A stretch of DNA of 64,000 nt from an uncultured virus (IMG/VR IMGVR_UViG_3300010370_000033) (taxonomy: Duplodnaviria > Heunggongvirae > Uroviricota > Caudoviricetes). The translations under genes and the position numbers were made by a program. This document shows positions 50,361 through 62,898 of this stretch, one piece after another; the first letter of the stretch is position 1, and each line of letters begins with the position of its first letter. Below the pieces are notes generated by a model. It was not told the origin of the DNA. It was given only the letters and a program-made list of their open reading frames with translations, and did not search any database. The stretch lies in the IMG/VR virus record IMGVR_UViG_3300010370_000033. The stretch is one strand, 5' to 3'.

Positions 50361-50693
50361 TCAAGAATAATAATTCCCAACAATCACAGTTCCATTGTAA
50401 CAGTATTTCATAAGAATTCCACTGGAATAAGTATCAGGATTGTATCCATCCCATTTCCTATAATCAAAGGAAGACATTTGATTTGAAGAAATTTTAATAA
50501 AATCTCCGACGTGATACCATTGGCCGCGATACTTGAAGAATTCTGCACTATCAAATTCATCCTCAGTAAGATAGTCAAACTGCCCACGGAGTTTATTATA
50601 CAAACTGCCTGGGCGCAGTCCACCGAAACCGTCCAACCATTGGCCCATGATGCACTCACGGGGAACGTTGTTTGTCTTAATGATGGCGGCCAT
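50361..50693 (-). CDS. Early phage hypothetical protein (start MAAIIK)
   Basis: FFKYRGQWY, WDGY..DTYSSG; promoter and terminator bracket it. Confidence 0.7.
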   Translation of the reverse strand: MAAIIKTNNVPRECIMGQWLDGFGGLRPGSLYNKLRGQFDYLTEDEFDSAEFFKYRGQWYHVGDFIKISSNQMSSFDYRKWDGYNPDTYSSGILMKYCYNGTVIVGNYYS

Positions 50694-50718
50694 TGTCGTC
50701 TCCGTTGTGGACTCCCAT

Positions 50719-50812
50719 AGTATGGGGCATGGAAGGCACCTATGGGCCAGTTCGGGGACGGTTCGGGAACCGGCACAAGCCACCCACAGCAGCAGATCAG
50801 ATCGACTAGACT
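50719..50812. promoter_or_regulatory. Symmetric divergent promoter: -10 / palindrome / -10
   Basis: CATACT (minus, 50719-24), 30 nt, GGGACG-N10-CGGCAC (50755-76), 30 nt, TAGACT (plus, 50807-12). Confidence 0.7.
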
Positions 50813-50817
50813 CTAAG

Positions 50818-50897
50818 AAATCAAACGAGAGGCGGAAACCTCAACGACAACAAATAGGAAACTTATCCTGCCAAATTTATTCACTATAAACAATAAA
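50818..50897 (+). ncRNA. Candidate small RNA, 'hairpin-CCUGCC' family
   Basis: AAATCAAACGAGAGGCGGAAACCTC...CCTGCCAAATTTATTCACTATAAACAATAAA; near-identical copy at 52918. Confidence 0.5.
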
Positions 50898-50982
50898 CTA
50901 AAATTTGATTCACTATAAACTATTCACGAAAAAGTGAATGAGAATTCTATTCACTAAGAATTCTCATTCACGATTGAATTCA

Positions 50983-51258
50983 CTATACTAGAGTCATTTT
51001 ATTAAGCATATCAAATTCAAGCACAAGACCACACTCAAAGTATAGACCAACGATCAAATCATTGTGCTTGATGCAAGCATTAGGATAAAAGAACCACCGA
51101 CTGCCGATGTTGTTCATTCGATAAACTGCATCCTCCAGGGTATCAAATTCACCCTCACGAACAATGTCGACATCCTTTGTACGATTCTGGAGAGCATTAT
51201 ATACATCATCAATGCTCATCTGATCGGTATTCTCAGAAAAGAAATGAAGCGTGAACAC
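50983..51258 (-). CDS. Early hypothetical protein
   Basis: 91 aa, GTG start; NNIGSRWFFYP. Confidence 0.6.
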   Translation of the reverse strand: MFTLHFFSENTDQMSIDDVYNALQNRTKDVDIVREGEFDTLEDAVYRMNNIGSRWFFYPNACIKHNDLIVGLYFECGLVLEFDMLNKMTLV

Positions 51259-51284
51259 GATAAGAAATGCAGTGGGAATTTGAG

Positions 51285-51314
51285 TGAGCCAGTTTATAGT
51301 CTTAGCTCAGGACT
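51285..51314 (-). ncRNA. Intercistronic H-type pseudoknot motif, copy 1
   Basis: AGUC-CU-GAGCU-AA-GACU-AUAAACU-GGCUC. Confidence 0.6.
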
Positions 51315-51320
51315 TGTGGG

Positions 51321-51473
51321 TCATTTGACCTTACCACTCCGAAGGTGGCCAGCCCAGACATAGGCCGGAGCCGTAACAATCCGCAACCTATCGCCATCAT
51401 CCACGATGCCAGCCCAAACGTAGGACTGGTCGGCCAGACTGCAAGCGATTCGAAGGGGAGCGGTGAGACGCAT
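51321..51473 (-). CDS. Small early protein (50 aa; preferred over track ORF 51302-51529)
   Basis: MRLTAPLRIACSLADQSYVWAG...YVWAG...; follows a CATACT box and the CTCCA-ATG leader seen elsewhere. Confidence 0.55.
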   Translation of the reverse strand: MRLTAPLRIACSLADQSYVWAGIVDDGDRLRIVTAPAYVWAGHLRSGKVK

Positions 51474-51717
51474 TGGAGGCGATTCCTGAACGACTCACAC
51501 AGTATGGGCCAGAATTCACGCCACGTCAATCACCAGACTCATTAGCACTGCTAATCACTGAATTCTCACGGATCGGCTGGTGATCTGCTAGACTATGGGG
51601 ACAATCAAACGAAACGCGGGCGGCGTGGAACCACAAATCAAGACACTACTCCTGCCAAATTTATTCACTATAAAGAATAAAAAAGAATAGGGATTTGATT
51701 CCCTATTCTTATAGAAT

Positions 51718-52032
51718 TCAATTCAGAAGAATTCCCGACTCAAATTCTTCCTCTTTTCCATCATAAGAAATAAACCATTGATGGTTCTTTTGATAAATGT
51801 ATTCGCCGTTTCCGTGAGCAGAAAGAATAGCGTTAAGTCTCGATTTGGTGGTCGTTGTTCTCCAACCGCCATCATAAAGTTTCAGCCAAGTATCACCAAT
51901 CTCGGCAATTTTGTTGCCATGAAGCCTCACAATGGAAACCTCATTCTCATTATAGACAGAAGTATTAGCCTGCTGCCAATCCTTAGATTGAGTGATGGCT
52001 TGGTTCATCAGGGTTTCAATCTTGCGTGCCAT
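51718..52032 (-). CDS. Conserved phage early protein (start MARKIE)
   Basis: LHGNKIA...GW.T.TTKSRLNA motif. Confidence 0.75.
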   Translation of the reverse strand: MARKIETLMNQAITQSKDWQQANTSVYNENEVSIVRLHGNKIAEIGDTWLKLYDGGWRTTTTKSRLNAILSAHGNGEYIYQKNHQWFISYDGKEEEFESGILLN

Positions 52033-52309
52033 GATGGTTTGGATGACGACTCCCTTAGTATGGGGCCTGGAAGGCACCTATGGGCCAGGCAATGGACAGT
52101 TCGGCAAACTGGCACAAGATCACACACAGGGTCGCAAAATGCCCTATCATTGTCTCAGCGGCACAGGAGGGCCACTTGAAAGCATTCACGACAATTTAAC
52201 GAGACTCCGAAGGTCGTTGACGAAGAGTAAGCCAAATTCACCCTGCCTTGAATATAAAGTATAAACAATAAAAAAGGAATTCACGAGGAATTCCCATTTG
52301 TTTAGAGAA

Positions 52310-52789
52310 TCACTTAAGATTCTCTTTCAATTCTGGAATCAAATAATCACGAACGTATTCCTCTACATTTGCATGCGGTTCAACGCCACCAATTCCACTA
52401 GATTCAATGAGTACAGTATGCTCACCTACGATAGACTTTGCTGGCCCATAAAGAGACAGATTCAGGTATGAGAAACCATACTCAATAATCTCTCTCACCA
52501 TAAATTCAGTCTTACTATCATCATAGACTTTCTTACCTTCACGATAAGGCATCCACCAGAGTTTATTATACCTATCACGACGAAGTATCTTAGCAGAACC
52601 ATCAAATTCTGGTGGCCGTGCATCACTCCACTTTACTTCACCATAGCATTCTACATCGTTAATGTCATAAGCATCATCCGATTCTTCTTTCAGAATCAGA
52701 TAATAACCATTGCCAAGATCATACTTTTTATCAATCTCAATCTCACAAGGATTCACGCAATCAAGATCAAATGGAAGTGTGACGATCAT
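52310..52789 (-). CDS. Early hypothetical acidic protein (start MIVTL)
   Basis: Promoter, shared leader GGGAGTCCACAACGGA, terminator. Confidence 0.65.
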   Translation of the reverse strand: MIVTLPFDLDCVNPCEIEIDKKYDLGNGYYLILKEESDDAYDINDVECYGEVKWSDARPPEFDGSAKILRRDRYNKLWWMPYREGKKVYDDSKTEFMVREIIEYGFSYLNLSLYGPAKSIVGEHTVLIESSGIGGVEPHANVEEYVRDYLIPELKENLK

Positions 52790-52816
52790 TGGAATCAATC
52801 CGTTGTGGACTCCCAT

Positions 52817-52912
52817 AGATTAACGGCAGAATCACCAACCGAACCTATTCAATGTGCCACTGAATGAACTGGCACATTCACGAGAATTTGACTCCAGAGT
52901 ATGCTGTAGAAT
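52817..52912. promoter_or_regulatory. Symmetric divergent promoter: -10 / palindrome / -10
   Basis: TAATCT (minus, 52817-22), 31 nt, GTGCCA-N10-TGGCAC (52854-75), 31 nt, TAGAAT (plus, 52907-12). Confidence 0.75.
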
Positions 52913-52917
52913 TCACG

Positions 52918-52997
52918 AAATCAAACGAGAGGCGGAAACCTCAACGACAACAAATAAGAAACTTCACCTGCGGAATTTATTTACTATAAAGAATAAA
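52918..52997 (+). ncRNA. Candidate small RNA, 'hairpin-CCUGCC' family
   Basis: Near-identical to 50818-50897. Confidence 0.5.
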
Positions 52998-53058
52998 CAA
53001 TAAGAAAGAATGGAATTCAATTCACTAACTGAATTCCATTCTGAATTGTATTCACGAA

Positions 53059-53256
53059 TTAAACTGGATCTGCCTCCCAAATGTCATAAGTTGCATTGGG
53101 AAACTTACGCTCTAATTGTTCAATCTTATTCTCCGCAAGTTCCCAGGATTTATGACGAGAAACTAACCATTCTTCTTTGTTTTCTTCACTCAATTCAATT
53201 CCTTCTGCATTCAATTCACTAATTGAATCAATGTCAACCACGAGAAAGTTAAACAT
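53059..53256 (-). CDS. Small acidic early protein (start MFNFL)
   Basis: Follows pseudoknot copy 2; terminator downstream. Confidence 0.55.
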   Translation of the reverse strand: MFNFLVVDIDSISELNAEGIELSEENKEEWLVSRHKSWELAENKIEQLERKFPNATYDIWEADPV

Positions 53257-53288
53257 TGGAATTTGCCTCAAGAATAAAGAATTGAATT

Positions 53289-53318
53289 TGAGTCAGTTTA
53301 ATGACTTGACTCAGGTCA
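53289..53318 (-). ncRNA. Intercistronic H-type pseudoknot motif, copy 2
   Basis: UGAC-CU-GAGUC-AA-GUCA-UUAAACU-GACUC. Confidence 0.6.
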
Positions 53319-53323
53319 ATTCA

Positions 53324-53527
53324 TCACAGAATAATAAAATCAATCAAGTTCTGAATGAGTTTGTATTCTTTATCATTCACAAAACACCAGCCATTCATTC
53401 TACAAATATACTCGGCACAATCGTTCACATTTGCACCTTGCTGAATCATAATGCAAAGTTGAGGAAAATGCCTCACGATCTTATACTGATAATCAGCAAG
53501 ATCGGTCGCTTGATTCTCAGTGAGCAT
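53324..53527 (-). CDS. Small early protein (start MLTEN)
   Basis: Downstream of CATACT box at 53552-57. Confidence 0.55.
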   Translation of the reverse strand: MLTENQATDLADYQYKIVRHFPQLCIMIQQGANVNDCAEYICRMNGWCFVNDKEYKLIQNLIDFIIL

Positions 53528-53807
53528 TGCGTTTGCCTCATGAACAGACACAGTATGAATCACGAAACGCCCCAGCACCAGCGATCTTGTGCCACTGAAT
53601 GAACTGGCACATTCACTCACTCATTCGCCCCAAATACACTAGAATACTCTCAGTTCACAAGAAAACCTTATGATTGTATTTCTCAAAATCTAATTCAGAG
53701 GCGGAAACCTCATTCACGAAAAATAAGGTACTTCACCTGCCAAATTTATTTACTATAAACAATACAAAAAAGGGAATTCAATAAAGAATTCCCTAAAGAG
53801 ATTGAAT

Positions 53808-54041
53808 TCACCAATTTAGAAATTCATTTGCATTCTCTTCTGCAAGTTCTTCTGTATCAAAAGGACCAAACCATTCACTATCAGGAATGCATTCAGGAGA
53901 ACATACACACCAATAAAAGCCAGGAGTGTATTCTGTATCACCATAATTCTCATTTAATTCTTCTGATTCATTATACTCATCACACTCAAATTGATTCATA
54001 TAATCAATCCAAACCGGAGTGGATCCAATGAGAGTTTGCAT
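53808..54041 (-). CDS. Small acidic early protein
   Basis: GFYWCVCSPECIPDSEWFGPFDTEELA. Confidence 0.65.
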   Translation of the reverse strand: MQTLIGSTPVWIDYMNQFECDEYNESEELNENYGDTEYTPGFYWCVCSPECIPDSEWFGPFDTEELAEENANEFLNW

Positions 54042-54153
54042 TGTTCAGAAAGTGATGAACAGATACAGTATGGGGCACATAAGATCCTTCTGGGGCACAT
54101 AGGGGACACTTGAAGAACTGGAACACTTTCATTCGCCCCATATGGTTTTGATG

Positions 54154-54348
54154 CTACTCATCTTTATTCACGATTTTGTCTAATGTTTCAATCAATGAGT
54201 TCTGAATCTTATGTAAATAAGAATCACCTTTTAATTCACAGATTGTTTCATAATAATCTAAAAGTTCTTCAACGTGTTTAATTTGATTACTTGGAATTCT
54301 TATCTTATCGGTTTTACCTAAATGAGAATACTTTGATGAAAATGGCAT
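54154..54348 (-). CDS. Small protein, possible ribbon-helix-helix DNA binder
   Basis: GKTDKIRIP followed by two helices; TATAAATA at 54374-81; flanked by TTCATTCGCCCCA repeats. Confidence 0.45.
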   Translation of the reverse strand: MPFSSKYSHLGKTDKIRIPSNQIKHVEELLDYYETICELKGDSYLHKIQNSLIETLDKIVNKDE

Positions 54349-54540
54349 AATTCATTCGCCCCATATAACGATTTATTTATACGCCCCAGATACAATTCAT
54401 TTGCCCCAGATAGAATCTTATTTACTAAATCATCTGGACCACATAAAACTTAATTCATTAAAACAAACTTCATTCAATCTTGTTTCTTATTGTATTCTTG
54501 AATCTCTTGTTTCTTGAGTTCTACTGTTCCTTAACTACCG

Positions 54541-54580
54541 AGACTCTAAGGTACTCTAAGTGTCTCTAAGGTAACTTAAA
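54541..54580. repeat. Degenerate tandem 10-mer (nnnCTCTAAG) x3-4
   Basis: agactctaag gtactctaag tgtctctaag gtaacttaaa. Confidence 0.75.
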
Positions 54581-54608
54581 CTAACCTGTATCATCGCTGA
54601 CAAGGCTA

Positions 54609-54637
54609 ATTCTACAGCAAATCAAATACACTGTCAA
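54609..54637 (-). promoter_or_regulatory. Near-consensus sigma70 promoter with no adjacent ORF
   Basis: TTGACA-17-TAGAAT. Confidence 0.8.
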
Positions 54638-55237
54638 GTCCTTGAGATATTATGTTTACATTTCGTAACAATTAGATTCACGAAAAGAATTGACTAAGAG
54701 TTCTTATGATTCACTGATGAACCATTAGATTCTTATTCACGAGAACTCCAATTCTTATACAAAATTCAAAGTCCACTCAGATTGACCTAGAAGGCCATCG
54801 TTTTCTCAAAAACATTTACGACATCATATGAGGCCCTAGAGTGCCCTTCTGAGGCTTTCTAGCAGCCTCCTACGATGCTTTAGACTCAAGGATTCAATGC
54901 ACCGTGAAAATAAGACTCAAAAATACCCTAAAGTAGGAACTTTAATGTATCTCTTAAGAATCTTAAAAATGATCGCTTTAATTCACTCAAAATCAGTTTC
55001 ATCAGAATCCACCAGACCCATTAAATCTCACGTTGCGTCTCGCTGAGATCCCTTGGTATGACTGGGCTCAAAAACGCAAAAAATCGTGATTTTCACGAAA
55101 ACGTACTAGACATCGTTCACTACAAATAGAATCAACGATTTTTTGGAAATTGATTTTCCCAACAAAAAAGGGGCTCCGAAGAGCCCCTAGAATGTCAATG
55201 TATCTTCAGGTAGTCTTATTCAGGACTTTAATTCACA

Positions 55238-55471
55238 TCAATTCACCTGAAGAATCAGTTCAGAACGACGAGCACGATTTACAAATGCGCCTACACTTTC
55301 TTCTTCTTCAATGGTATCAGACAGTTCGGTTTCCCAGGCTTCAATATCATTGACGTGATAGGTATAGATCTTATCAGGATTGGTGTGATAGACAATATCT
55401 ACTTGAGAGTCATCATTCACTTCAGAAATAGAAAGAATGGAGCTGGACTTGAATGCAGTTACAGTAGCCAT
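55238..55471 (-). CDS. KTSC-like domain protein
   Basis: SSSILSI...IVY...IYTY.V...SVGAFVN pattern. Confidence 0.55.
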   Translation of the reverse strand: MATVTAFKSSSILSISEVNDDSQVDIVYHTNPDKIYTYHVNDIEAWETELSDTIEEEESVGAFVNRARRSELILQVN

Positions 55472-55572
55472 AATAAGAAATTAACGGAATTAAAGGACTA
55501 AGAGAGGCTCTTGTGCCTCATGAGATTAGAATACCAAAGTTCTTGTATAAATACAAGGGTGTTTGTGCCAGT

Positions 55573-55746
55573 TCACCATCTGTCCATTCGGGACAGGTCT
55601 TCAATATAGGCATTTACTTTCTCTGCTGGCTCTAGATCAAATAGCTGTCGCCAGTTGATCTGATGAGGATTAAAGTCAGGAAATGCTGTGATTTCTAGGG
55701 TGATTCTATACCTTTCCTTAGTGGCGGACTGATAAGAAACTGACAT
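55573..55746 (-). CDS. Small hypothetical protein (57 aa; not in ORF track)
   Basis: MSVSYQSATKERYRITLEI..FPDFNPHQINWRQLFDLEPAEKVNAYIEDLS; TTGACA-17-TAAGAT at 55774-55802. Confidence 0.7.
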   Translation of the reverse strand: MSVSYQSATKERYRITLEITAFPDFNPHQINWRQLFDLEPAEKVNAYIEDLSRMDRW

Positions 55747-55884
55747 TTTGAGTTCTGGGGTGAAACTTTGTGTATCTTAGGCGATCTTAGGGGATTTGTC
55801 AAGGGGTGTCGGGAGTTATATTTTGGGTCTGGTGGGGTTTTTATGTGGGGCGCGTGTTATTTTGAGTTCTTAAGTGTTGGCAAT

Positions 55885-56068
55885 CTAAGATCACAATAAG
55901 AATTGGCATTTACTAGCATTTACTAGCATTTACTAGCATTTACTAAGGTTTGCTCAATAAGATCTGACATTTTCCCAATAAGATCACCATAAGAAATAGC
56001 TTTTACTAAGGTTTCCTCAATAAGAACTAAGATTTCTCAATAATATCAACTTTTTCTCAATAAGATAC
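55885..56068. repeat. Iteron-like array: GCATTTACTA x4 plus about six CAATAAGA units
   Basis: Tandem at 55906-55945; CAATAA(G/T)A at 55894, 55956, 55976, 56018, 56038, 56058. Confidence 0.85.
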
Positions 56069-56153
56069 TTCTTTCATTCCGATTTATCCTTATAAACGAC
56101 TACTTTTTGTTCTACCTTTCCTACATAAAAATAGAGAAAGTAAAACTCCTACT

Positions 56154-56651
56154 ATGATAGATGCACCACATAAAGAGGTTTGGAGAATCAAAGGATTTGA
56201 AACCTTTACAAATTACTTTATTGATGTAAATGGTAATGTATATTCTACCAAGTATAAGAACCTTCGCAAACTTAGACCATATTGGGCTAACAACAAAGAG
56301 AACCCATATTGGAGAGTTACTCTATGCGATAAAAATGGTAATCTAAGAAAGTTTTATATTCATCAACTGATGCGTGCTGCATTCATTCCAGAAGAAATGC
56401 AGGGACGTTATGTATTTGCTGGAAATAAGAATCGTAAAGATAATTCACTTCGCAATCTCACTCAAGAATATGAACTCAATGAAGATGTTCGCAATGAGAT
56501 TAAGTTAATACATCAGGCTTGTATTGAGAAAGGATTGAATGTTTCTGATTACTCTGGTTTTGTGAATGAAGTGATGAGTGAGATGTTAGAAGAATATGTA
56601 AATCGTAAAGGATTGAAGAAGATATTGTATAGACTGAAGAATGAGCAATAA
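56154..56651 (+). CDS. NUMOD4/HNH-derived protein with degenerate active site and helical C-terminal domain
   Basis: NYFIDVNGNVYS, YWRVTL, FYIHQLMRAAFI, N..DNSLRNL; the usual DH is absent. Confidence 0.6.
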   Translation: MIDAPHKEVWRIKGFETFTNYFIDVNGNVYSTKYKNLRKLRPYWANNKENPYWRVTLCDKNGNLRKFYIHQLMRAAFIPEEMQGRYVFAGNKNRKDNSLRNLTQEYELNEDVRNEIKLIHQACIEKGLNVSDYSGFVNEVMSEMLEEYVNRKGLKKILYRLKNEQ

Positions 56652-56684
56652 AAAAGAGAGCATGTTTTAGTCGCTCTCTTTTTT
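56650..56684. terminator. Bidirectional intrinsic terminator between convergent genes
   Basis: A-run-GAGAGC...GCTCTC-T-run. Confidence 0.8.
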
Positions 56685-57141
56685 ATTGCATTTTTGATTT
56701 GAAGTATGAGATAATCAGATTTTCATCAATATTAGGATTCTTTCTCCCTGAGTTGTTGAGTATTGTTGTATGCCAGGGACTATTGTCTTCTGTTGCTAAT
56801 CTTGAAAGTTGGGTATCAGAATAAGAACCATAGATTTCTTGAATTCTCAATAGAAGTGGAATTCTAGGATCTTGTTCTGAAATTGTAGGAGGTGATCTTA
56901 GAAGTTCTGAAAGTGGGAATTTGATTGAACTGCTTCCATATTCTTTAGCAGCATTGTAGATAGTAGGAAATATTGGTCCCCAAGGAAATGCCGATACAAA
57001 CTCATCAGTGAGTGGTTGATTGTATAAGGCAAGGCACCAACAATGAGAAAAATAAGTGAGTCTCTGAAGTTTGATGACTGTTGAATTTGGATTTTTAGCA
57101 AGAAACCAATTTGCAACTGCTAAAGATGAGAGATATTTCAT
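56683..57141 (-). CDS. Panacea (DUF4065/SocA-like) antitoxin-domain protein
   Basis: VANWFL, KLQRLTYF, L....AFPWGP...IY, YG.YS..QLS......PW. Confidence 0.8.
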   Translation of the reverse strand: MKYLSSLAVANWFLAKNPNSTVIKLQRLTYFSHCWCLALYNQPLTDEFVSAFPWGPIFPTIYNAAKEYGSSSIKFPLSELLRSPPTISEQDPRIPLLLRIQEIYGSYSDTQLSRLATEDNSPWHTTILNNSGRKNPNIDENLIISYFKSKMQ

Positions 57142-57438
57142 TTAATTTTCAAACTCTTTTTTCAATCGTTCGTATTCAATTCTTCGCGCTTCTTTTTGTT
57201 GATTTTCTCGTTCAATTCGGACAGCATATTCTTTATCATTTTCCTTGCGATACTTAATTGCTCTAAGAACTATTGTAGCATCATCGCAGTAGGGTTCATA
57301 TTCTTTCTGCAATTCAACTTTTGAATATCCTTGAGAACGAAGATGCTTGAGTTTATGAATCAAGTCCTCAATAGGTTCAGTACACCAAATTCCACGAAGA
57401 ACTGATGTGTATTCGGTTACTTGTTTGCGATCAGTCAT
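57142..57438 (-). CDS. Hypothetical protein
   Basis: 98 aa; R.E.D.EY..R...EYERLKKEF. Confidence 0.6.
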   Translation of the reverse strand: MTDRKQVTEYTSVLRGIWCTEPIEDLIHKLKHLRSQGYSKVELQKEYEPYCDDATIVLRAIKYRKENDKEYAVRIERENQQKEARRIEYERLKKEFEN

Positions 57439-57608
57439 TTCAAAAGAGAATCAATTTTGCGAATAACTTGAGCCGTAAAGGTAAAGGGCCAAAAAAGACC
57501 TGCGAACATTCCTATAAACCAATCGTCCCAAGTATTATGTTCAACCATTGTAATTCCAGAAGAAACTGAAAGAAACAAATAAGCGGCAATGAGATAAGTC
57601 ATTGAAAT

Positions 57609-57812
57609 TCAGAAGTCAGTTTGAAAATAAGATGAATTGTATGTTTCATCCCGATCAGAAGGAAGATTCAATCGCTTTTGAAGATGATTGATTCCTGAGA
57701 CCTTATAGTCTTCTTCTTTGAGATCGGAAAGTAAATTAGTAATTTGTTTCTTTTCGTTTTGTGTCTTTGGTGTGCGAAAATAAGAATTGTGTTTGCGATA
57801 GGTGCGAGACAT
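57609..57812 (-). CDS. Small basic hypothetical protein
   Basis: MSRTYRK....RTPKTQNE. Confidence 0.6.
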   Translation of the reverse strand: MSRTYRKHNSYFRTPKTQNEKKQITNLLSDLKEEDYKVSGINHLQKRLNLPSDRDETYNSSYFQTDF

Positions 57813-58216
57813 CAGGTGTAATTATCAAGAAAATAATCTCGAAGAATTTCCATAGATTCAGAATCCAATTCATCAAGAAGAGATTGAATCTTATTCATTT
57901 TATTCTCTTGTTCTTTCTTTCGTTTTTCTTTTTCAACTTTTGTATAATACTCACAAGTGTATTGTCCACCATAATCATCTCCGTGAGGATAATGATTACG
58001 AAGAAAACTATTTTCTGAAAGTCCTACAACTTCTTCATACGCTTGAATATCAACGTGAGATTCAGCCTCAGAAGTGTTCCGAATGAAACTACTCACAATA
58101 TCGGAATAGTTTCCATAAACAACACGTTCAGCATCATTATAATTTTTTGCTACAACTGGAATCTCAATGGTTGTGGTAACGAGAAAGAGTGAAAGCTCGT
58201 CGGAATAAGAAGACAT
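57812..58216 (-). CDS. Hypothetical protein
   Basis: 134 aa, operonic overlap. Confidence 0.55.
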   Translation of the reverse strand: MSSYSDELSLFLVTTTIEIPVVAKNYNDAERVVYGNYSDIVSSFIRNTSEAESHVDIQAYEEVVGLSENSFLRNHYPHGDDYGGQYTCEYYTKVEKEKRKKEQENKMNKIQSLLDELDSESMEILRDYFLDNYT

Positions 58217-58241
58217 TAGAATTCAGAAGTCAGTGTGAGTG

Positions 58242-58604
58242 TCACAGTTGAGATTCAATCAGATCTGCGATTTCATCAAATGAAAGATTCTCAAAATCAT
58301 TCAAATCGGAGATTTGTTTCTTTCTATATCCAGTATCAATAGTGGGATTAAGCTCCTTAAGATCCGCCCATTCAATGACTTCTTGAGTCAGAACTTCACC
58401 AGCATCTCCGTTTTTAGAAGGAATAAAATAATCAAACTGTCCGTTACCATCAATCCATTCTTGATTAGTCTCTTTCAGATAAAGATCACAAAGAACTCCA
58501 AGACAACAGAAATGATTGCAGTCGTCACGAAGTTGATAACGTCCTTGAGAATACTCTCCATTGCGAAGAGCATTTAACCACTTTTGCTTGATTTCGGATT
58601 TCAT
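58242..58604 (-). CDS. Phage protein with W..ALR.GEY.Q / FCCLGVL motif (paralog of 61250-61648)
   Basis: Clear internal paralogy. Confidence 0.75.
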   Translation of the reverse strand: MKSEIKQKWLNALRNGEYSQGRYQLRDDCNHFCCLGVLCDLYLKETNQEWIDGNGQFDYFIPSKNGDAGEVLTQEVIEWADLKELNPTIDTGYRKKQISDLNDFENLSFDEIADLIESQL

Positions 58605-58630
58605 TTGAAGTTCTGGGGATGAACAAGAGT

Positions 58631-58689
58631 AGAATAACCGGGCTCTTGGAGGAATTCAAGAGCCCGTGTGACAGTGATTAGAGTGTCAC
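58631..58689 (-). promoter_or_regulatory. Early promoter cassette: palindrome + TTGAAT-17-TATTCT within a stem-loop
   Basis: GTGACA-N10-TGTCAC at 58668-89; CGGGCTCTTG/CAAGAGCCCG stem; near-identical copy at about 62016-62073. Confidence 0.75.
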
Positions 58690-58968
58690 ATCAAAAGAGT
58701 ACACTTGTCCGCGAGAGCGAATCTGAAAAATGGAGTTTACATTAAATGAACGCCAGGCCCCCCAACCACGCTCTTTTGCAATAGAGAAATCGCGAACGCG
58801 AATGAGATTTGGATTGTCTGTATTGGGACCGAAACCTTTCAGTTCTTTACGATCTTTTGGATTAAAGACAATCGTACGCTTCTCTCCATTCTTTTTGATG
58901 AATTTTACAGAAACAATGGTGCTTCCTTCTTCTTGAAGAAAGTTGCGAATCAGAGTTGCTTTGCTCAT
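58678..58968 (-). CDS. SH3/WYL-like beta-barrel protein (DUF2693-like; start MSKAT)
   Basis: VKFIKKNGEKR...D......WRSF. Confidence 0.6.
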   Translation of the reverse strand: MSKATLIRNFLQEEGSTIVSVKFIKKNGEKRTIVFNPKDRKELKGFGPNTDNPNLIRVRDFSIAKERGWGAWRSFNVNSIFQIRSRGQVYSFDVTL

Positions 58969-59048
58969 TGGAGTTCTGTGGTGAACAATGTAAGTATGGC
59001 AGGGCATTAGAGGAGTTTCAAGTGCCCGTGTGACAGTTTCAGATCTGT

Positions 59049-59411
59049 CTACTGCTTGCGAAAAACGAAAGAATTGGTTTTCGAAGAATAGACAGATCGT
59101 TGCGTTCTTGTATATGCCATCAGAGCAACAAGCAGTTCATTTGCTTGTTGAATATCTTCCAGACTATCAGTTTCACCTTCAGGAAGTGGTTCGGATTTGC
59201 GAGCATTCTCAATATCTTTCAGCCAACGACTTCCGTGCTCAGCAGTCTGTTTCACTTGCTGATTGGTCAGACTAACAGTAAGATTCGTCAGAAACTCAGA
59301 GAGAACCTCAGGATTCTCGGAGAGACGTTGAATCATCTCCTTACGAGAAATGCTACTAACTGTTCCAAATGGTGTAGGATCTTCCAACCATTTGGGAGAT
59401 GTGGTGTTCAT
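59049..59411 (-). CDS. Hypothetical early protein (start MNTTS)
   Basis: Downstream of a palindrome promoter cassette. Confidence 0.55.
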   Translation of the reverse strand: MNTTSPKWLEDPTPFGTVSSISRKEMIQRLSENPEVLSEFLTNLTVSLTNQQVKQTAEHGSRWLKDIENARKSEPLPEGETDSLEDIQQANELLVALMAYTRTQRSVYSSKTNSFVFRKQ

Positions 59412-59482
59412 CTGAAGTGAGTTGCGAACAAGATGAGAATAACAGAGCACCAGAGGAGTTTCTAGTGCCCTTGTGCCAGTTG

Positions 59483-59746
59483 TCAGGGTGTCACAAGACG
59501 CTTTTTAGCATCACGAACTTCATCATCAATACAAGTTCCAATTTGTTCGTAAATCCAGTCATTCTCTTCAATTTCATTGAGAACTTCTTCTACAATTTCA
59601 TCAGAAAGTGAAATTGGATCAAAGTTTTCATCAAGTTCAATGACATCCTCTTTTGTGAAGATGAATGCTGCTACTGGAGAATTTTCTCCTTGTTGCTGAA
59701 TCAGACGCTCAACGGATTCCTTAAGCTGTTGAAGTGTGCGAGCCAT
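59483..59746 (-). CDS. Hypothetical acidic protein
   Basis: 87 aa ORF in minus-strand operon. Confidence 0.6.
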   Translation of the reverse strand: MARTLQQLKESVERLIQQQGENSPVAAFIFTKEDVIELDENFDPISLSDEIVEEVLNEIEENDWIYEQIGTCIDDEVRDAKKRLVTP

Positions 59747-59752
59747 TTGATT

Positions 59753-59932
59753 TTAGAAGCGAATGATGGGATGATTGTTGTCAAGAACTTGACAATCTTC
59801 AGTCGCGAAGACAAGTTCTATGCTAGCTTGATGAAACTCATCATTTTCATAAGAATCCCAGACACAAACATCTTGATTCAGTTGTTCTTCATTCAGTTTT
59901 TGAAGTTGTTGCAGAAGTTCTTTGTAAGTCAT
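59753..59932 (-). CDS. Small protein (start MTYKELL)
   Basis: Shared leader TTGTTCACCAC(A/C)GAACTCCA-ATG. Confidence 0.65.
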   Translation of the reverse strand: MTYKELLQQLQKLNEEQLNQDVCVWDSYENDEFHQASIELVFATEDCQVLDNNHPIIRF

Positions 59933-60000
59933 TGGAGTTCGGTGGTGAACAATGTAAGAATAGCGTGGATTTATGAACCTGTATGTGCTCTTGTGCCAGT

Positions 60001-60204
60001 TCAGACTTTGGCACAATGCTTGTGAAGATAACTCATCAGAATTGGAACTTTTGAGTTATCATAAAAACAATCGCATTCTTCTGGAATTGAAATATCTGGA
60101 TGATTCTTCGTTAGATAATTCATCATAAATTGACCGTAACGTTGATTTCCCCTATGATGAAGAAACTCAGAGTTAATGAAGTGCATTAAATCATCAAAGT
60201 TCAT
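60001..60204 (-). CDS. Small phage protein (QRYGQ...N.L...DCFY motif)
   Basis: 67 aa, operonic overlap. Confidence 0.6.
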   Translation of the reverse strand: MNFDDLMHFINSEFLHHRGNQRYGQFMMNYLTKNHPDISIPEECDCFYDNSKVPILMSYLHKHCAKV

Positions 60205-60386
60205 AGATGTGTCACCGTTGCGTAAATGGATGCTGTTCCGTGGCAGTAAATGTGAACTGGTTTTTTATAGAAATTTGCTACTTCTTGTGCCTCTGCATAG
60301 ATTTCTTGATAGGGTCCAGCAAGAATTGTGTAATCCTTATTTTCCATTTTCAGAGTGAAAATGGAATTTCCGTTCAGAACAGTCAC
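60201..60386 (-). CDS. Small hypothetical protein
   Basis: 61 aa, ATGA overlaps both sides. Confidence 0.5.
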   Translation of the reverse strand: MTVLNGNSIFTLKMENKDYTILAGPYQEIYAEAQEVANFYKKPVHIYCHGTASIYATVTHL

Positions 60387-60568
60387 TTAAAATGCCTCTC
60401 AAGAATCAGATTCATAACACAATGAGTTGCATAAGAGTTTTCGCGATCTGCTTCAGAGAGATTCTTGGCAAACTCTACCAATTCTTCTGAAGTATAAACT
60501 TTCTGCAAATCGTTCACGAATTGTCTTGCAAAATCAATGCTTTCAGTAATCATTTGAAGTGTTTGCAA
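60383..60568 (-). CDS. Small hypothetical protein (start uncertain)
   Basis: 61 aa, operonic overlap. Confidence 0.45.
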   Translation of the reverse strand: MQTLQMITESIDFARQFVNDLQKVYTSEELVEFAKNLSEADRENSYATHCVMNLILERHFK

Positions 60569-61058
60569 ATGAATGTGAAGAAAATCAATGTATTGGTCAG
60601 TGTGAAATACTTCACTCGCAATTCCATTGATTTAGAAAGTCAACTCCGCGAATTGAATTTCCTTTTCTTCACTCTCATAAGATACTGAAGAATCGGAAAT
60701 AAGTCTAGGGTGATTGTGCCAGTTACAAAATTGGCTTTTGAGGTGAGTTGTTGGTATGAGTAGGAGTCTTAGGTTGAGTCTCATTAAGAATCCAGTGGTG
60801 GACTGGGCTGAAAACTCAAAAAATCATTGATTTCAGGTTGGGAGTAGTGGAGTTCGTTGAGTGCAAATGAAAATGAGACTTTTTGAATTGTTCTAAACAA
60901 CTTGAGAACTCAAAAAAAGAAGCCCATTTAGGGCTTCTGAGAGTTAATGTTATCCAGAACTGTGATGATCTCTTGATTGGGAGTCAGGTAGTCTAGTTGA
61001 ACTACCGTAGGAGAAATCTGAAACTTTCCAACAAGAACAGAAGCGAGAAGAATTTCAA

Positions 61059-61253
61059 TCATACATCACGAATAATAAGTTTTTTATGAGACTTGGAAGA
61101 ATCAGTGAAGTCAACGATATCCTCTACAAGAATTCTCACTTGTTGTTTTTTGTCCCAATCATAATCTTGAAACTCAAGTGGAGTATCTCCTCCATATTCT
61201 ATTACAACTTGAGTGAGAATGGTAATCAGTTCTTGAACAGTTGTGGGATTCAT
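61059..61253 (-). CDS. Small hypothetical protein
   Basis: 64 aa, ATGA overlap. Confidence 0.55.
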   Translation of the reverse strand: MNPTTVQELITILTQVVIEYGGDTPLEFQDYDWDKKQQVRILVEDIVDFTDSSKSHKKLIIRDV

Positions 61254-61648
61254 AGTTGCGCTTGAATTAGTTCTGCAATGGACCCAAAATTGTAGCCGTG
61301 GTCATTAAGTTCGGAGAGTTCTGTTGAGAGATATTCATCACAATCAGACTCTTCATCAAAATCACCATTTTCAGTCATCACTTCAGGACAATTTGTATTC
61401 AGACCCGCCCAATCACTTACTGATTTTGGAAGAAAATCATCTGTTTCTTCAAAGGTATAATAATCATCAGATGTAATATCACCAGTTTTTTCGTGAAACT
61501 CCCACTGTTGATTTGTTTCTTTTAGATAAAGATCCGTGAGAACTCCAAGACAACAGAATCCGTCAGGTGTGTGAAGTTTTCCTTCTGTTTGAGAGTACTC
61601 TCCACTGCGAAGAGCCTCAATCCATTTTTGTTTGATTTCGGGTTTCAT
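61250..61648 (-). CDS. Paralog of 58242-58604 (start MKPEIK)
   Basis: KQKWIEALRSGEYSQ...FCCLGVLTDLYLKETNQ. Confidence 0.75.
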   Translation of the reverse strand: MKPEIKQKWIEALRSGEYSQTEGKLHTPDGFCCLGVLTDLYLKETNQQWEFHEKTGDITSDDYYTFEETDDFLPKSVSDWAGLNTNCPEVMTENGDFDEESDCDEYLSTELSELNDHGYNFGSIAELIQAQL

Positions 61649-61688
61649 TTTTTTGAAATAATAAAGATCATTCAAACTAAAGTTACAC

Positions 61689-61991
61689 TCATTTGTGACT
61701 CTGTGCAATGGAGAATGCTTCATCAAAAGACTTCACATCTTCTGCAACACAAGACTCCAGAAAAGAACCATCAGGCTGTTTTCCTTTATGAATCCAAACA
61801 TTGAAGGAATCATAAGCGATTCCGGCAATATAAGTACCCTCTCCAATTTGTTCACTAGGTCCGCGACGAGTGCAGTGTTTAATCTTGATGTTTTGATTCT
61901 TGGAAAGAGTATAAACATCAAAGGATGATGTTTTCATCGTGCGAACACAGAACTCATTAGAGAGATCGTCGCCAATTTCAAAGAGAGTCAT
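61689..61991 (-). CDS. Hypothetical early protein
   Basis: 100 aa, directly after promoter cassette. Confidence 0.55.
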   Translation of the reverse strand: MTLFEIGDDLSNEFCVRTMKTSSFDVYTLSKNQNIKIKHCTRRGPSEQIGEGTYIAGIAYDSFNVWIHKGKQPDGSFLESCVAEDVKSFDEAFSIAQSHK

Positions 61992-62397
61992 TGTTCTTGG
62001 TTTGGAACATTGTAAGAATAACCGGGCTCTCAGAGTAAATCAAGAGCCCGTGTGCCACTTGAGGAATTGTCAGTCGCGATCAGAAATGTTCCAGATTCCC
62101 CATTGTCCTTGAGAATTGTTTCCTTGAAGAACCGAAATTGCCCAGAGTCTTTCTTCTGAAGAATACTGGTTCCATCTATCCGACAAGTAACAATCATCCC
62201 AGATCTTTTGGGCTCTAGAAATTGTCATCAGAGAATGAGTCATTCCGAGACTTCTTCGCTTTCTTCTTGTTCAATATCGTTCGTGATTGCATCAAGAATC
62301 ATCAGAATCTCATCACCAGTTTTTCCTTTGCGAAGCATATCAAGCATTAGATTTTTAGTTGCTTTAGTCATATTGAAACAAATGTAAAGGAACAATT

Positions 62398-62425
62398 TAA
62401 GCAGTTTAATGTCTTGCTTAGGACA
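62398..62425 (-). ncRNA. Intercistronic H-type pseudoknot motif, copy 3
   Basis: UGUC-CU-AAGC-AA-GACA-UUAAACU-GCUU. Confidence 0.6.
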
Positions 62426-62431
62426 AGAAAT

Positions 62432-62650
62432 TCAGAGATTGTTCTCTGCAATTCGGTTCATTACTTCTTTTGCATATTGAGTAAAATCTGATGGATAAAC
62501 GTATCGTGTAATATCTTCTTTAAGAATTACATCATCAAGAATATCACACTGATCGTAAGTGTCTACAATCAACTTACACGCATCATAAAGAGATGCAAGA
62601 TGAGATTCCTTAGAATCAAATGAAATCGCAGAGTAGGATGGAAGAGTCAT
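62432..62650 (-). CDS. Small protein (start MTLPSY)
   Basis: TGATG overlap with upstream gene. Confidence 0.6.
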   Translation of the reverse strand: MTLPSYSAISFDSKESHLASLYDACKLIVDTYDQCDILDDVILKEDITRYVYPSDFTQYAKEVMNRIAENNL

Positions 62651-62898
62651 CAGAGTTGCTTGGCTTGAAAGGACATAAAAGGACCACAATTCAGAAAATA
62701 TCCATTTGTCTCAAACTCATCAATCATCATCCAGTCTTCGTGCTTTTGAATCAGAAAGAAAGCACCCTTTGTTTCAGAATCTTCTTTTACTGCGCTGAAT
62801 GATTTTGTGGCTTCAGTGTAGTTTGAGAATACTTGTGGCCGATTCCAGAATCCGTGCTCATTGTGTCCGAAAGAAATCACCCGATACCAAATGTTCAT
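62650..62898 (-). CDS. Small hypothetical protein
   Basis: 82 aa in operon. Confidence 0.55.
   Translation of the reverse strand: MNIWYRVISFGHNEHGFWNRPQVFSNYTEATKSFSAVKEDSETKGAFFLIQKHEDWMMIDEFETNGYFLNCGPFMSFQAKQL

Follow-up and report, generated by a model that had tools for sequence, protein, structure and literature searches.

A compact pseudoknot behind stop codons of a cyanomyovirus fragment belongs to a widespread phage family resembling the coremin motif

Three similar short sequences follow stop codons on the minus strand of a 64,000-nucleotide stretch of an uncultured virus (IMG/VR IMGVR_UViG_3300010370_000033; the whole stretch is called the window), a fragment of a T4-like cyanomyovirus. 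They raise the question of whether a real RNA structure recurs here and, if so, what it does for the phage. The original prediction placed a compact pseudoknot at each site. Both a reading of the sequence and a covariance model (R1, made from 106 non-window sequences, mainly of other phages, plus copy 3) confirmed the three pseudoknots, with the predicted coordinates right to within 1 nt. Each copy is a compact H-type pseudoknot of 27–29 nt, an RNA element from the coding (minus) strand, and all three have the architecture S1(4 bp)-CU-S2(4–5 bp)-AA-S1′-WUAAACU-S2′. The copies, and a possible degenerate fourth, are as follows.

51286..51314, minus strand: copy 1 (sequence read; R1, 21.3 bits, E 2e-4); 51314-51286 reads AGUC CU GAGCU AA GACU AUAAACU GGCUC, with one U-G pair; S1 51314-51311 / 51301-51298, S2 51308-51304 / 51290-51286; L1 CU 51310-51309, L2 AA 51303-51302, L3 AUAAACU 51297-51291
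53290..53318, minus strand: copy 2 (sequence read; R1, 24.2 bits, E 3e-5; pattern count); 53318-53290 reads UGAC CU GAGUC AA GUCA UUAAACU GACUC; S1 53318-53315 / 53305-53302, S2 53312-53308 / 53294-53290; CU 53314-53313, AA 53307-53306, L3 UUAAACU 53301-53295
62399..62425, minus strand: copy 3, the canonical 27-nt form (sequence read; R1, 46.6 bits, E 7e-12, copy 3 itself being in the R1 alignment); 62425-62399 reads UGUC CU AAGC AA GACA UUAAACU GCUU; S1 62425-62422 / 62413-62410, S2 62419-62416 / 62402-62399; CU 62421-62420, AA 62415-62414, L3 UUAAACU 62409-62403
55211..55227, minus strand: possible degenerate fourth copy (R1, 7.4 bits, E 3, not significant)

Only the three copies stand out in the R1 scan of the window, the next match scoring 9.8 bits. 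The minus-strand sequence shows the predicted stems, each with its compensatory changes, and CU, AA and UAAACU are invariant as predicted. The 21-nt pattern of the 5-bp form has 2 matches in the window against 0.05 expected (0 of 100 shuffles reached 2); the 8-mer WTAAACTG alone is not enriched there (6 found, 8.4 expected). At 55211..55227 the hairpin AGUC-CUGAAUAA-GACU is retained, the UAAACU spacer and the S2 partner are gone, and a strong terminator-like hairpin follows (55188-55169).

The region of the copies is a series of small minus-strand ORFs with terminator-like hairpins between them.

51321-51473: ORF upstream of copy 1, within a G+C-rich stretch and doubtful as a gene
50983..51258, minus strand: ORF downstream of copy 1, start GTG 51258, alternative ATG 51219
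50971-50934: terminator-like hairpin after ORF 50983..51258
53324..53620, minus strand: ORF upstream of copy 2, 98 aa, its TGA ending 5 nt before S1
53059..53256, minus strand: ORF downstream of copy 2, ATG 53256, GAGG 9 nt upstream
53042-53007: terminator-like hairpin closing the copy 2 unit
62432..62689, minus strand: ORF upstream of copy 3, 85 aa, its TGA ending 6 nt before S1
62240..62371, minus strand: ORF downstream of copy 3, ATG 62371, 27 nt after the motif
62070-62243: ORF after 62240..62371, followed by a terminator-like hairpin at 62050-62023

Every stop is TGA and lies 6, 5 and 6 nt before S1 in copies 1, 2 and 3 (in copy 2 measured from the in-frame TGA 53326-53324), and the next start comes 27 (GTG 51258), 33 (ATG 53256) and 27 nt (ATG 62371) after the motif end, as anticipated (5–6 nt and about 25–35 nt). 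None of the three window copies has a hairpin behind it, the MFE of the next 30 nt being 0 to -1.1 kcal/mol.

Unrelated phages commonly carry this fold, and the window copies are members of a very widespread phage family, for which the counts given from collection scans are of the matches listed and the size is a lower bound. Where hosts are named, motif-bearing phages infect Bacillota, Arthrobacter, cyanobacteria, Rhodobacterales and crAss-like hosts; enterobacterial phages are absent from the 176 record matches listed, bar one 17-nt partial match. Sampling by taxon was not discriminating: it found the motif in 3 of 301 genomes in the class of a Staphylococcus genome (centre genome counted) and in 0 of 301 in the class of a Pluralibacter genome. 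Tandem copies occur in L009 and L024. The literature search found no paper describing the fold in phages. As to whether it is a known Rfam motif, a check raised with the original prediction, no Rfam 15 family, preQ1-I (RF00522) included, matched when 66-nt and 121-nt stretches were scanned with E allowed up to 10, but a related motif is already published for RNA viruses.

Positions that the searches left free still pair. The middle S1 pair, unconstrained in the IMG/VR pattern, is paired at 113 of 113 listed sites (A-U 72, U-A 34, C-G 4, others); when the whole of S1 is left free, pair 1 is G-C at 70, C-G at 35, A-U at 8, U-A at 3 and unpaired at 1 of 117 sites listed. At 161 non-redundant sites among the matches listed, the 3′ half of S2, which the search pattern did not cover, has its C conserved at 98% and its U at 96%. 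U-G pairs are frequent (40 of 105 at one S2 pair, sites listed) and C-A combinations rare. Paired cells make up 93.9% of alignment A1; shuffles give 81.5 ± 0.8 (0 of 500 attain the A1 value), and sliding the partners leaves 25–44% paired. Such pairing of pattern-free positions through compensatory changes indicates a real structure, formed by RNA of the motif strand. The longer flanking open frames are on that strand at 139 of 179 sites, and only 19 of 179 lie within a long same-strand frame (both among the matches listed).

Across the family, stop triplets peak before S1: among 179 listed sites, 47 are at a distance of 5 nt, 23 at 6 nt and 22 at 7 nt, over a background of about 5–21 per position. 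Of 148 listed sites with a real upstream ORF of at least 60 codons, 71 lie 4–9 nt behind its end and almost none lies nearer. Many copies elsewhere follow terminator hairpins or tRNAs, or lie 30–190 nt past an ORF end. S-CRM01 has one copy that takes up the whole 32 nt separating tRNA-Met from tRNA-Leu, and other copies 2–5 nt from tRNAs; six further family sites have a tRNA 4–6 nt downstream, and two copies adjoin a type III hammerhead. The 3′ flank is poor in G and rich in U, and a stable hairpin lies within 6 nt downstream at only 24 of 172 listed sites, which is no enrichment relative to a control placed 80 nt beyond.

Based on sequence comparisons, the phage family is best read as a variant of coremin, the exoribonuclease-resistant motif (xrRNA_C) of eukaryotic RNA viruses. 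Coremin is given as GUCCGAAGACGUUAAACUAC, is reported from many eukaryotic RNA viruses, beny- and cucumoviruses among them, with tandem copies, and depends on spacer bases A15-A17, C18 and U19 for Xrn1 stalling (PMC6546385, PMC10520033); it brings both Xrn1 and scanning ribosomes to a stall and also promotes -1 frameshifting, its second hairpin being strictly required for Xrn1 resistance but not for frameshift stimulation (PMC6546385, PMC10520033, PMC10321173). Coremin shares with the phage fold a 3–4 bp GNC/GNC hairpin closed by C-G, a loop with C first and AA last, a spacer N-U-U-A-A-A-C-U that in the phage fold contains the coremin-essential bases, sense-orientation intergenic or UTR sites, and tandem copies. 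The phage loop differs in having 8 nt (CURAGYAA) with U, not G, as its second base, which breaks the coremin YGAD/YGNNAD rule, and in being joined to GCUY by four or five Watson-Crick pairs; after ACU the phage fold has G where coremin has A, and the second hairpin is missing from the window copies and most phage copies. The carriers also differ, being dsDNA phages of bacteria.

The canonical tetraloop coremin is itself present in IMG/VR, where the next two bases outside the pattern are AC at 106 of 124 listed sites. Contigs of at least 15 kb carry 49 of its 80 listed loci, and on large phage contigs the downstream ORF encodes a head scaffolding protein in 10 of 14 loci tested. The octaloop form has a scaffold gene next downstream in 23 of 142 downstream ORFs (among the matches listed), and is a single copy at the junction of minor head and scaffold genes in Staphylococcus phage 37 and Lactobacillus phage phi jlb1. 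Both forms occupy the same niche, in front of scaffold genes. Two RNA-virus contigs have the octaloop form after RdRP ORFs, with a hairpin behind it.

A Watson-Crick type of coremin (xrRNA_WCC; PMC10321173) is likewise H-type with loop bases paired past an A-rich spacer, and its tested S2, GAG-CUC, is as in window copies 1 and 2; the second hairpin is dispensable for its stimulation of frameshifting but still required for Xrn1 resistance. It differs in an S2 of 3 pairs that takes up spacer positions 18-20 (CUA replaced) and in a 4-nt loop (PMC10321173). The phage fold retains CU, and S2 comes after it.

Other known systems are less alike. The preQ1-I aptamer, the smallest known natural H-type aptamer, combines a short P1 with a 2-nt L1 and has an A-rich tail lying in the groove of P1; the phage fold has the same small H-type design and 2-nt L1, but lacks an expression platform and adjoins tRNAs. 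The PeSL cassettes of T4-type phages, promoter-plus-hairpin DNA modules, also mark gene boundaries in early regions and are likewise short, structured and conserved. The known 5′ stabilisers of Bacillus mRNAs resemble it as 5′-terminal structures prolonging mRNA life in RNase J hosts, and are hairpins or ribosome-binding sites with no conserved pseudoknot. Class 3 plant-virus xrRNAs (dianthovirus, polerovirus, ST9a), compared by description, are likewise small and protein-independent, with an apical loop that pairs downstream, are frequent intergenically and are a proposed source of protein-coding subgenomic RNAs; they differ in their 44–54 nt, two stacked helices, ring round the 5′ end and sequence (PMC12397905).

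Coremin halts RNA-degrading enzymes, and the likeness to it suggests that the knot may well shield the downstream message; that it acts as a cis-acting barrier to 5′-to-3′ moving enzymes is the explanation favoured here, with about an even chance of being right. The interpretation in the original prediction, which offered an RNase J/Xrn1 roadblock, a re-initiation element or a ligand or protein binder, is partly supported: the roadblock option gains from homology (hairpin, closing pair and spacer of coremin) and loses by the missing second hairpin of the window copies and the poor fit of the loop to the YGAD/YGNNAD rule. Several features of the family tell against a barrier. The stop peak at 5 nt is what a ribosome-directed element would show, and fits an exonuclease barrier only as the closest packing allowed. 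Where a hammerhead adjoins two copies, its cut would separate the knot from the downstream RNA, and where copies lie 4–6 nt before tRNAs RNase P would remove the knot. RNase J above the TIGR00649 cut-off was found in one of five motif-bearing genomes tested, a Saccharibacteria genome, and in neither the Polynucleobacter bin nor three motif-bearing Bacteroidota bins, which are perhaps incomplete. The motif-bearing phage contigs in the RNase J-tested bins may be misbinned.

It is possible, though a good deal less probable, that the knot meets a ribosome at its mRNA entrance while the stop is in the A site, and acts on translation, either as an insulator that keeps the ribosome from sliding or scanning on to the next cistron after termination or through an effect on termination, readthrough or frameshifting where the gene ends. 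The stop peak and the real ORFs ending 4–9 nt upstream favour this, and that gap matches the spacing of frameshift stimulators. Scanning ribosomes stall at coremin, which also stimulates -1 frameshifting; its Watson-Crick type does so without a second hairpin, which the window copies likewise lack. However, the many copies behind terminators, by tRNAs or far from an ORF end do not follow stops; the frame through the knot is unconserved and, at a distance of 6 nt (copies 1 and 3), meets an in-frame stop at positions 5-7; stop usage is ordinary (TAA 49, TAG 17, TGA 6 among the matches listed); and the next start follows at widely varying distances, 1–287 nt.

An unlikely explanation is a stand-alone small RNA or aptamer, freed by RNase Z/P or hammerheads, that would bind a small molecule or host factor and might, for instance, serve as a decoy for RNases or other defence proteins. 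Its three invariant loops on variable stems are as in aptamers, and the tRNA-flanked copies, the hammerhead neighbours and the tandem 27-nt array in L009 suit it, but close packing by tRNAs is explicable by genome compaction. Apart from scaffold genes the downstream genes have no common class in riboswitch style, the 3′ strand of S2 is not a ribosome-binding site, and no expression platform or Rfam riboswitch match was found.

Considerably less probable is a 3′-end cap guarding the upstream gene from 3′-to-5′ exonucleases after a nearby downstream cut by RNase P, a hammerhead, or RNase E acting on the flank, which is rich in U and poor in G. The knot does lie directly behind stops, with cleaving elements 4–8 nt downstream at about 11 sites, but its 8 bp are weak beside the G+C-rich hairpins of the same genomes, the upstream RNA is often already capped by a terminator hairpin before the knot, and xrRNA-type folds are known to withstand unwinding only when it comes from the 5′ side. 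Slightly more improbable again is that polycistronic RNA is punctuated here by a new small self-cleaving ribozyme or by a site that a nuclease recognises: the invariant unpaired bases and the phage intergenic niche common to hammerheads and tRNAs fit, but we know of no natural self-cleaving ribozyme class that is not far larger than 27 nt, a separate cutter is already present where a hammerhead or tRNA adjoins, Rfam gave no ribozyme match, and the available parts of the coremin papers handle the relatives as intact RNAs in vitro and mention no cleavage. Already disfavoured, and the least probable of all, is a DNA-level signal (promoter part, protein operator or PeSL-like recombination hotspot): intergenic sites often after terminators, BPROM-based 'promoter' annotations overlapping the motif in Staphylococcus phage B166 and a conserved 27-mer that could seed recombination are outweighed by interleaved compensatory changes and frequent U-G pairs that suit RNA and not duplex DNA, a wrong gap between -35-like and -10-like elements with no -10 conserved at a fixed distance, and the presence of the motif in RNA viruses.

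Under the favoured reading, a barrier to 5′-to-3′ travel, the knot would work protein-free, as a mechanical obstacle on the transcript. To our knowledge Xrn1 does not exist in bacteria, and in the cyanobacterial host the main candidate enzyme would be RNase J, with RNase E scanning or ribosomes as possible further clients. A position 5–6 nt behind the stop would be the minimum spacing that spares the knot from unwinding by the terminating ribosome. Decay begun upstream would halt at the knot and spare the downstream cistron, which would persist as a stable message bounded by the knot at its 5′ end and, in the window, closed by a terminator-like hairpin at its 3′ end.

On the minus strand of the window stand three compact pseudoknots with the fold S1 (4 bp)-CU-S2 (4-5 bp)-AA-S1'-WUAAACU-S2', in which S1 and S2 are interleaved stems:

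51286-51314, minus strand, pseudoknot copy 1
53290-53318, minus strand, pseudoknot copy 2
62399-62425, minus strand, pseudoknot copy 3

Re-reading of the minus strand returned exactly the sequences of the original prediction, together with its stem layout: S1 has 4 bp, S2 has 5, 5 and 4 bp in copies 1 to 3, and the linkers are CU, AA and A/U-UAAACU. The compensatory stem changes between copies were confirmed, as was the identity of the three linkers. The proposed position between genes also holds, with in-frame stops ending 6, 5 and 6 nt before S1 and the next start following S2' after 27, 33 and 27 nt. The observation is real and well described. Rfam 15 gave no match at gathering threshold in the whole window, and sub-threshold scans (17 kb, and stretches of 66 and 121 nt, at E up to 10) returned only far-sub-threshold chance matches.

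The 21-nt pattern of the two 5-bp copies has two matches in the window against 0.05 expected. The bare 8-mer WTAAACTG is not enriched in the window, so the signal resides in the whole arrangement. R1, a covariance model of the knot with its 8-nt loop (the octaloop form), was trained on 106 sequences from elsewhere, with copy 3 added and S1 as the sole modelled helix. Its scores for copies 3, 2 and 1 were 46.6, 24.2 and 21.3 bits, and nothing else in the 128 kb searched exceeded 9.8 bits; a degenerate fourth hairpin at 55211-55227 was not significant.

The structural module of the window is that of a T4-like myovirus. PHROG scans, which took in 29 of the 31 window ORFs of at least 150 aa, identified tail sheath, tube, portal, a split large terminase and giant baseplate-wedge proteins, and the tail sheath shares 69.7% identity with that of Synechococcus phage S-SM2. 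The split terminase and the insert in the portal are possible inteins or mobile insertions. No tRNA gene was found in the window, and the early region has no close DNA relative by megablast and two short matches by blastn.

3285-4469, plus strand, 394-aa transposase (phrog_506, E 2e-128), on the opposite strand within the structural gene block
4478-6898, minus strand, 806-aa portal with two profile-matching stretches; the insert between them resembles a piece of anaerobic ribonucleotide reductase
9823-12929, minus strand, large terminase (phrog_2) in two ORFs, 622 aa (profile positions 109-454) and 400 aa (451-631)
58639-58666, 59444-59471 and 62023-62050, also 50934-50971, 51683-51710, 52275-52295, 53007-53042 and 53771-53794, minus strand, repeated terminator-like hairpins

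Many small ORFs, with terminator-like hairpins between them, occupy the minus strand at 47-64 kb. Between 50500 and 64000 there are 25 such hairpins (7.0 +/- 2.9 in shuffles), the majority of them on the minus strand, and none of the 25 coincides with a knot copy. In all three cases a terminator-like hairpin lies 12-20 nt behind the last ORF of the cistron downstream of the knot, which may be chance, since the small-ORF region has about one hairpin per 540 nt. Two hairpin families were seen there, one reading CGGGCUCUUGA...GAGAGCCCG followed by GUUAUUCU and the other formed around GAATTC palindromes; the repeats recall the PeSL cassettes of T4-type phages. G+C runs at about 0.30-0.37 but rises in an island at 48-52 kb (48000-52300: 0.45-0.52, against 0.30-0.37 around it). 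The ORFs of the island have no PHROG match (none for 48267-48977), Rfam gave no match there, and the ORF at 51321-51473, which lies inside it and 5' of copy 1, has a non-coding look. The island could be acquired DNA or structured RNA.

A degenerate pattern derived from the copies gave at least 114 loci in IMG/VR and at least 121 in a species-representative genome collection. The closing C-G pair and W-U-A-A-A-C-U were fixed by the search patterns, so that their invariance in the family is not independent. Among the matches listed, the middle S1 pair, unconstrained on both sides, was paired at 113 of 113 IMG/VR sites with at least four pair types, and a scan freed of S1 (n = 117) found pair 1 paired at 116 sites (G-C 70, C-G 35, A-U 8, U-A 3, unpaired 1) and pair 2 at all 117. 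The partner strand of S2, which lay outside the pattern, was G-C-U-Y: of 105 four-base cases among the matches listed, 89 had four of four pairs and 16 had three, and the outer pair was G-C in 57, A-U in 26 and G-U in 5. At 161 non-redundant sites, again among the matches listed, the two free bases of S2' were C (98%) and U (96%), no conservation was seen beyond the 27 nt, and the flanks were G-poor and the 3' flank U-rich. In an alignment of 107 rows, pre-filtered for at least three pairs per stem, 93.9% of cells were paired against 81.5% in shuffles (0 of 500 reached the observed value) and 25-44% with slid partners. The hairpin-bearing expression fitted 86 of the sites listed from the genome collection, of which 42 have all eight pairs; sites lacking the 5' strand of S1 were chance-like.

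U-G pairs are frequent and C-A pairs rare in the stems of the matches listed, which argues that the knot forms as RNA on the strand shown. That strand is the coding strand of the neighbouring genes at 139 of 179 sites among the matches listed. Stop triplets cluster just upstream, being 5 nt before S1 at 47 of 179 non-redundant sites, 6 nt at 23 and 7 nt at 22, compared with about 5-21 elsewhere (among the matches listed), and the usage of stop codons is ordinary. Upstream ORFs of 60 codons or more end 4-9 nt away at 71 of 148 sites and overlap the knot at three, and the next start follows at 1-287 nt, many at 11-33 nt (both among the matches listed). The comparative sequence evidence establishes a strand-specific RNA pseudoknot with invariant loops, predicted to fold at the gene boundaries of polycistronic phage transcripts.

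BLAST searches with two common knot variants revealed these carriers: 92 records of temperate Staphylococcus phages, 15 of Lactobacillus, 9 of Bacillus megaterium and 13 of Arthrobacter phages, and further phages of Clostridium tetani, Anoxybacillus, Celeribacter and Lentibacter, two crAss-like phages, Cylindrospermopsis phages and Synechococcus phage S-CRM01. Matches in an Enterococcus tail gene, Serratia and Syn9 were spurious short matches. Over whole records, R1 found one copy each in Staphylococcus phage 37, Lactobacillus phi jlb1, Arthrobacter Amigo and S-SM2, seven in S-CRM01, one strong and one weak copy in crAss cr7_1, and none in Syn9 or P-TIM68.

The genes behind the knot include head scaffolding proteins of two PHROG families (23 of 142 downstream ORFs among the matches listed); the remainder are diverse (HNH endonuclease, primase, SSB, pstS, methylase and others). 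In phages 37, B166 and phi jlb1 the knot lies between minor head/protease genes and the scaffold gene, and in the scaffold-gene subgroup a terminator-like hairpin often stands 5' of it. A second recurrent neighbour is a tRNA, 4-6 nt downstream at six sites and 31-33 nt downstream at two more (among the matches listed). About 3 nt separate the knot of Amigo from a tRNA-Gly downstream, and copies in S-CRM01 lie 2 and 5 nt before tRNAs or 2-3 nt after them, one of them filling the gap between tRNA-Met and tRNA-Leu. Two knots, one in a Polynucleobacter genome bin and the other in an IMG/VR contig, adjoin a type III hammerhead core, which by-eye parsing places with its cut 6-8 nt behind the knot.

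In related cyanophage contigs (L019, L071 and L114 versus L021, L025, L054, L076 and L102) an Hsp20 gene and a hairpin precede the knot. The next gene is pstS or else an inserted gene for an HNH endonuclease, which brings a TACAAT box of its own; this suggests that a homing endonuclease landed immediately behind the knot. Two CRISPR arrays, on genome contigs L174 and L204, have spacers matching the 27-nt knot, so that hosts appear to target this conserved phage sequence. At 597-710 on the plus strand of locus L009, four 27-nt knot units stand in tandem with progressively decaying pairings; the array recalls type III antitoxin (ToxI-like) repeats, and no toxin ORF was found within its 340 nt of sequence. 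A Pfam scan of 79 of the 148 upstream ORFs found, besides a Tad2-like protein, DUF932, NusG, Lsr2 and an HD-domain protein. Being missing from Rfam, the knot is overlooked by current annotation pipelines, and some public records call ORFs or promoters across it; the two annotations listed here, one in S-CRM01 and one in B166, are probably artefacts of an unrecognised RNA element.

L131, about 1497-1600, minus strand, and L001, about 597-700, minus strand, type III hammerhead core directly behind the knot (regular-expression match, parsed by eye)
NC_015569.1, 141605-141817, S-CRM01 hypothetical ORF g190, its end running into the knot
NC_028859.1, 21047-21083, Staphylococcus phage B166, annotated BPROM 'promoter' over the knot
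L040, 562-792, minus strand, Tad2-like Thoeris anti-defence protein (PF11195, E 9e-18), directly upstream of the knot

Two of the 79 upstream ORFs in the Pfam scan were RdRP_3 polymerases, at L024 (two copies) and L070; the octaloop knot thus also stands behind the polymerase ORF in tombus-like RNA viruses, and in these contigs a stable hairpin stands behind it. These RNA-virus occurrences lead to the xrRNAs, among which coremin (xrRNA_C), the Xrn1-resistant motif of eukaryotic RNA viruses, is similar. PMC10520033 prints the motif as GUCCGAAGACGUUAAACUAC. It has a 3-bp GUC/GAC hairpin with C-G as the closing pair and a YGAD loop; its spacer of 10 nt has A15-A17, C18, U19 and A20 as essential bases, and a second hairpin (hp2) of any sequence completes it. 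Coremin stalls Xrn1 (PMC6546385), halts scanning ribosomes (PMC10520033) and stimulates -1 frameshifting (PMC10321173). Loop variants of 5-8 nt occur across the RNA virome, intergenic regions included, and one natural octaloop is functional in the BNYVV context (PMC10520033). In a Watson-Crick variant (xrRNA_WCC) the loop GAG pairs with CUC; this variant frameshifts without hp2, whereas for Xrn1 resistance hp2 is 'strictly necessary' (PMC10321173).

The first hairpin of coremin (3-5 bp with closing C-G, a 5' pyrimidine facing a 3' purine) is present in all three window copies, as G-C, N-N and C-G plus an outer pair, and W-U-A-A-A-C-U in all three agrees with spacer positions A15-A17, C18 and U19. 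The loop departs from the coremin rule of YGAD (4 nt) or YGNNAD (6 nt): it is C-U-R-A-G-Y-A-A, 8 nt, of which the first base (Y) and the last two (AA) fit and the second (U) does not. Where coremin continues with A20-C21 and an hp2 of at least 4 bp, the next base of the knot is G, paired with the loop. Shared, then, are the hairpin, its closing pair, the first and last loop bases and UUAAACU; the difference is an eight-base loop that pairs with GCUY after CU. xrRNA_WCC forms three pairs between loop bases 6-8 and spacer 18-20, whereas the covarying loop-to-3' pairing of the knot is shifted behind CU and comprises 4-5 pairs. The 30-nt 3' flanks of the window copies fold at 0 to -1.1 kcal/mol, with no second hairpin, and among the matches listed a stable hairpin lies within 6 nt of the octaloop form at 24 of 172 family sites, with no enrichment.

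Canonical tetraloop coremin is itself present in IMG/VR, at 124 or more sites. Among the matches listed, AC follows the pattern at 106 of 124 sites, 49 of 80 loci are on contigs of at least 15 kb, the downstream ORF on large contigs is a scaffolding protein in 10 of 14 loci, and a hairpin lies within 4 nt of about half the unique sites (11 of 23 for large contigs and 18 of 25 for small). The occurrence of canonical coremin and octaloop knot in the same place of phage head modules argues for one family with one job. Judged by its sequence, the knot is a new coremin-type variant that has an octaloop and lacks hp2, and its carriers belong to a realm new for this motif. The words 'phage' and 'bacteri' are absent from the available text of PMC10520033, and the coremin papers surveyed RNA viruses only; the available text of a catalogue of 10,006 viral structured RNAs (PMC10690425) does not mention the knot. 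Among the papers listed on xrRNA together with bacteriophages, prophages or RNase J1, none treats phage xrRNAs, and motif strings returned only unrelated primers and similar.

These likenesses relate the predicted knot to an element that mechanically stops 5'-to-3' machines, and by analogy we infer that in bacteria it would also stop such a machine. For this cyanophage the obvious candidate enzyme would be RNase J, which reportedly exists in Synechocystis (so the title of PMC12464536); flaviviral xrRNAs are said to stop RNase J1. Decay arriving from upstream would halt at the knot and the downstream cistron would persist. The 5-nt minimum behind stops would fit a structure kept folded during ribosome termination; the ribosomal helicase acts near +11, and the first pair of the knot would sit just beyond it. 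The helix of a tRNA or hammerhead 0-6 nt behind the knot could replace the second hairpin of coremin.

The main rival is a barrier or insulator directed at the ribosome, for which the stop-codon spacing is exactly as expected. Against the exonuclease barrier, the window and most phage copies are without a second hairpin, the YGAD rule is broken, and RNase J was found in only one of five motif-bearing genome bins tested (Saccharibacteria) and in neither the Polynucleobacter bin nor three Bacteroidota bins, all of which may be incomplete. Taxon sampling toward RNase J hosts found the motif in 0 of 301 genomes in one set and 3 of 301 in another, a frequency too low to tell hosts apart. In addition, cutting by RNase P or a hammerhead would separate the knot from the RNA downstream. 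For these reasons, and for the stop spacing, the ribosome barrier is retained. Where a -1 slippery heptamer would lie, 5-8 nt upstream, there is a stop codon and not a slippery site. An anticodon-stem-loop/codon mimic, in which GCUY would pair with the loop CU-RAGY-AA, is a possible reading in formal terms.

A released small RNA or aptamer and a 3' cap are lesser rivals, alongside a ribozyme. The HDV-like theta ribozymes of phages have a nested double pseudoknot and a catalytic C and cut within 5 nt of the tRNA 3' end (PMC10879173). Two interleaved helices in 27 nt make P1-P4 of a theta ribozyme impossible, knot copies are mostly 5' of tRNAs, and no HDV-family Rfam match was found; theta, pistol and hammerhead readings of the knot itself fail on size and helix order and have no Rfam matches. 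A DNA signal is a further lesser rival, against which the compensatory changes and frequent U-G pairs speak, and a sigma-70 promoter was rejected for wrong spacing and the lack of a fixed -10. Neither an intrinsic terminator (no copy is among the 25 terminator-like sites, and among the matches listed the base directly 3' of the knot is A at 52% of family sites) nor a BoxA-like element (GCUC with a U run; conservation stops at position 26) accounts for the knot.

With somewhat more doubt than confidence, it is proposed that one family of minimal, protein-independent roadblock RNAs is common to eukaryotic RNA viruses and to phages from many bacterial phyla, and that the octaloop would be the first prokaryotic exoribonuclease-resistant (or ribosome-stopping) class; phages would so cut polycistronic transcripts (scaffold/capsid messages, tRNA precursors, early gene cassettes) into segments of unequal stability, and the clear Watson-Crick S2 would reveal the long-sought coremin fold. 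The hundreds of natural variants with clean covariation offer a direct route to that unsolved structure. As a tool for synthetic operons in bacteria, the knot would be smaller than any known stabiliser or insulator. If it is a barrier, it would be a portable, protein-independent 27-nt phage module for setting message boundaries and half-lives, would explain unequal levels within one operon, for example of scaffold and capsid versus portal, and would link the evasion of bacterial RNA decay (RNase J, RNase E scanning) to the xrRNA biology of plant and animal viruses.
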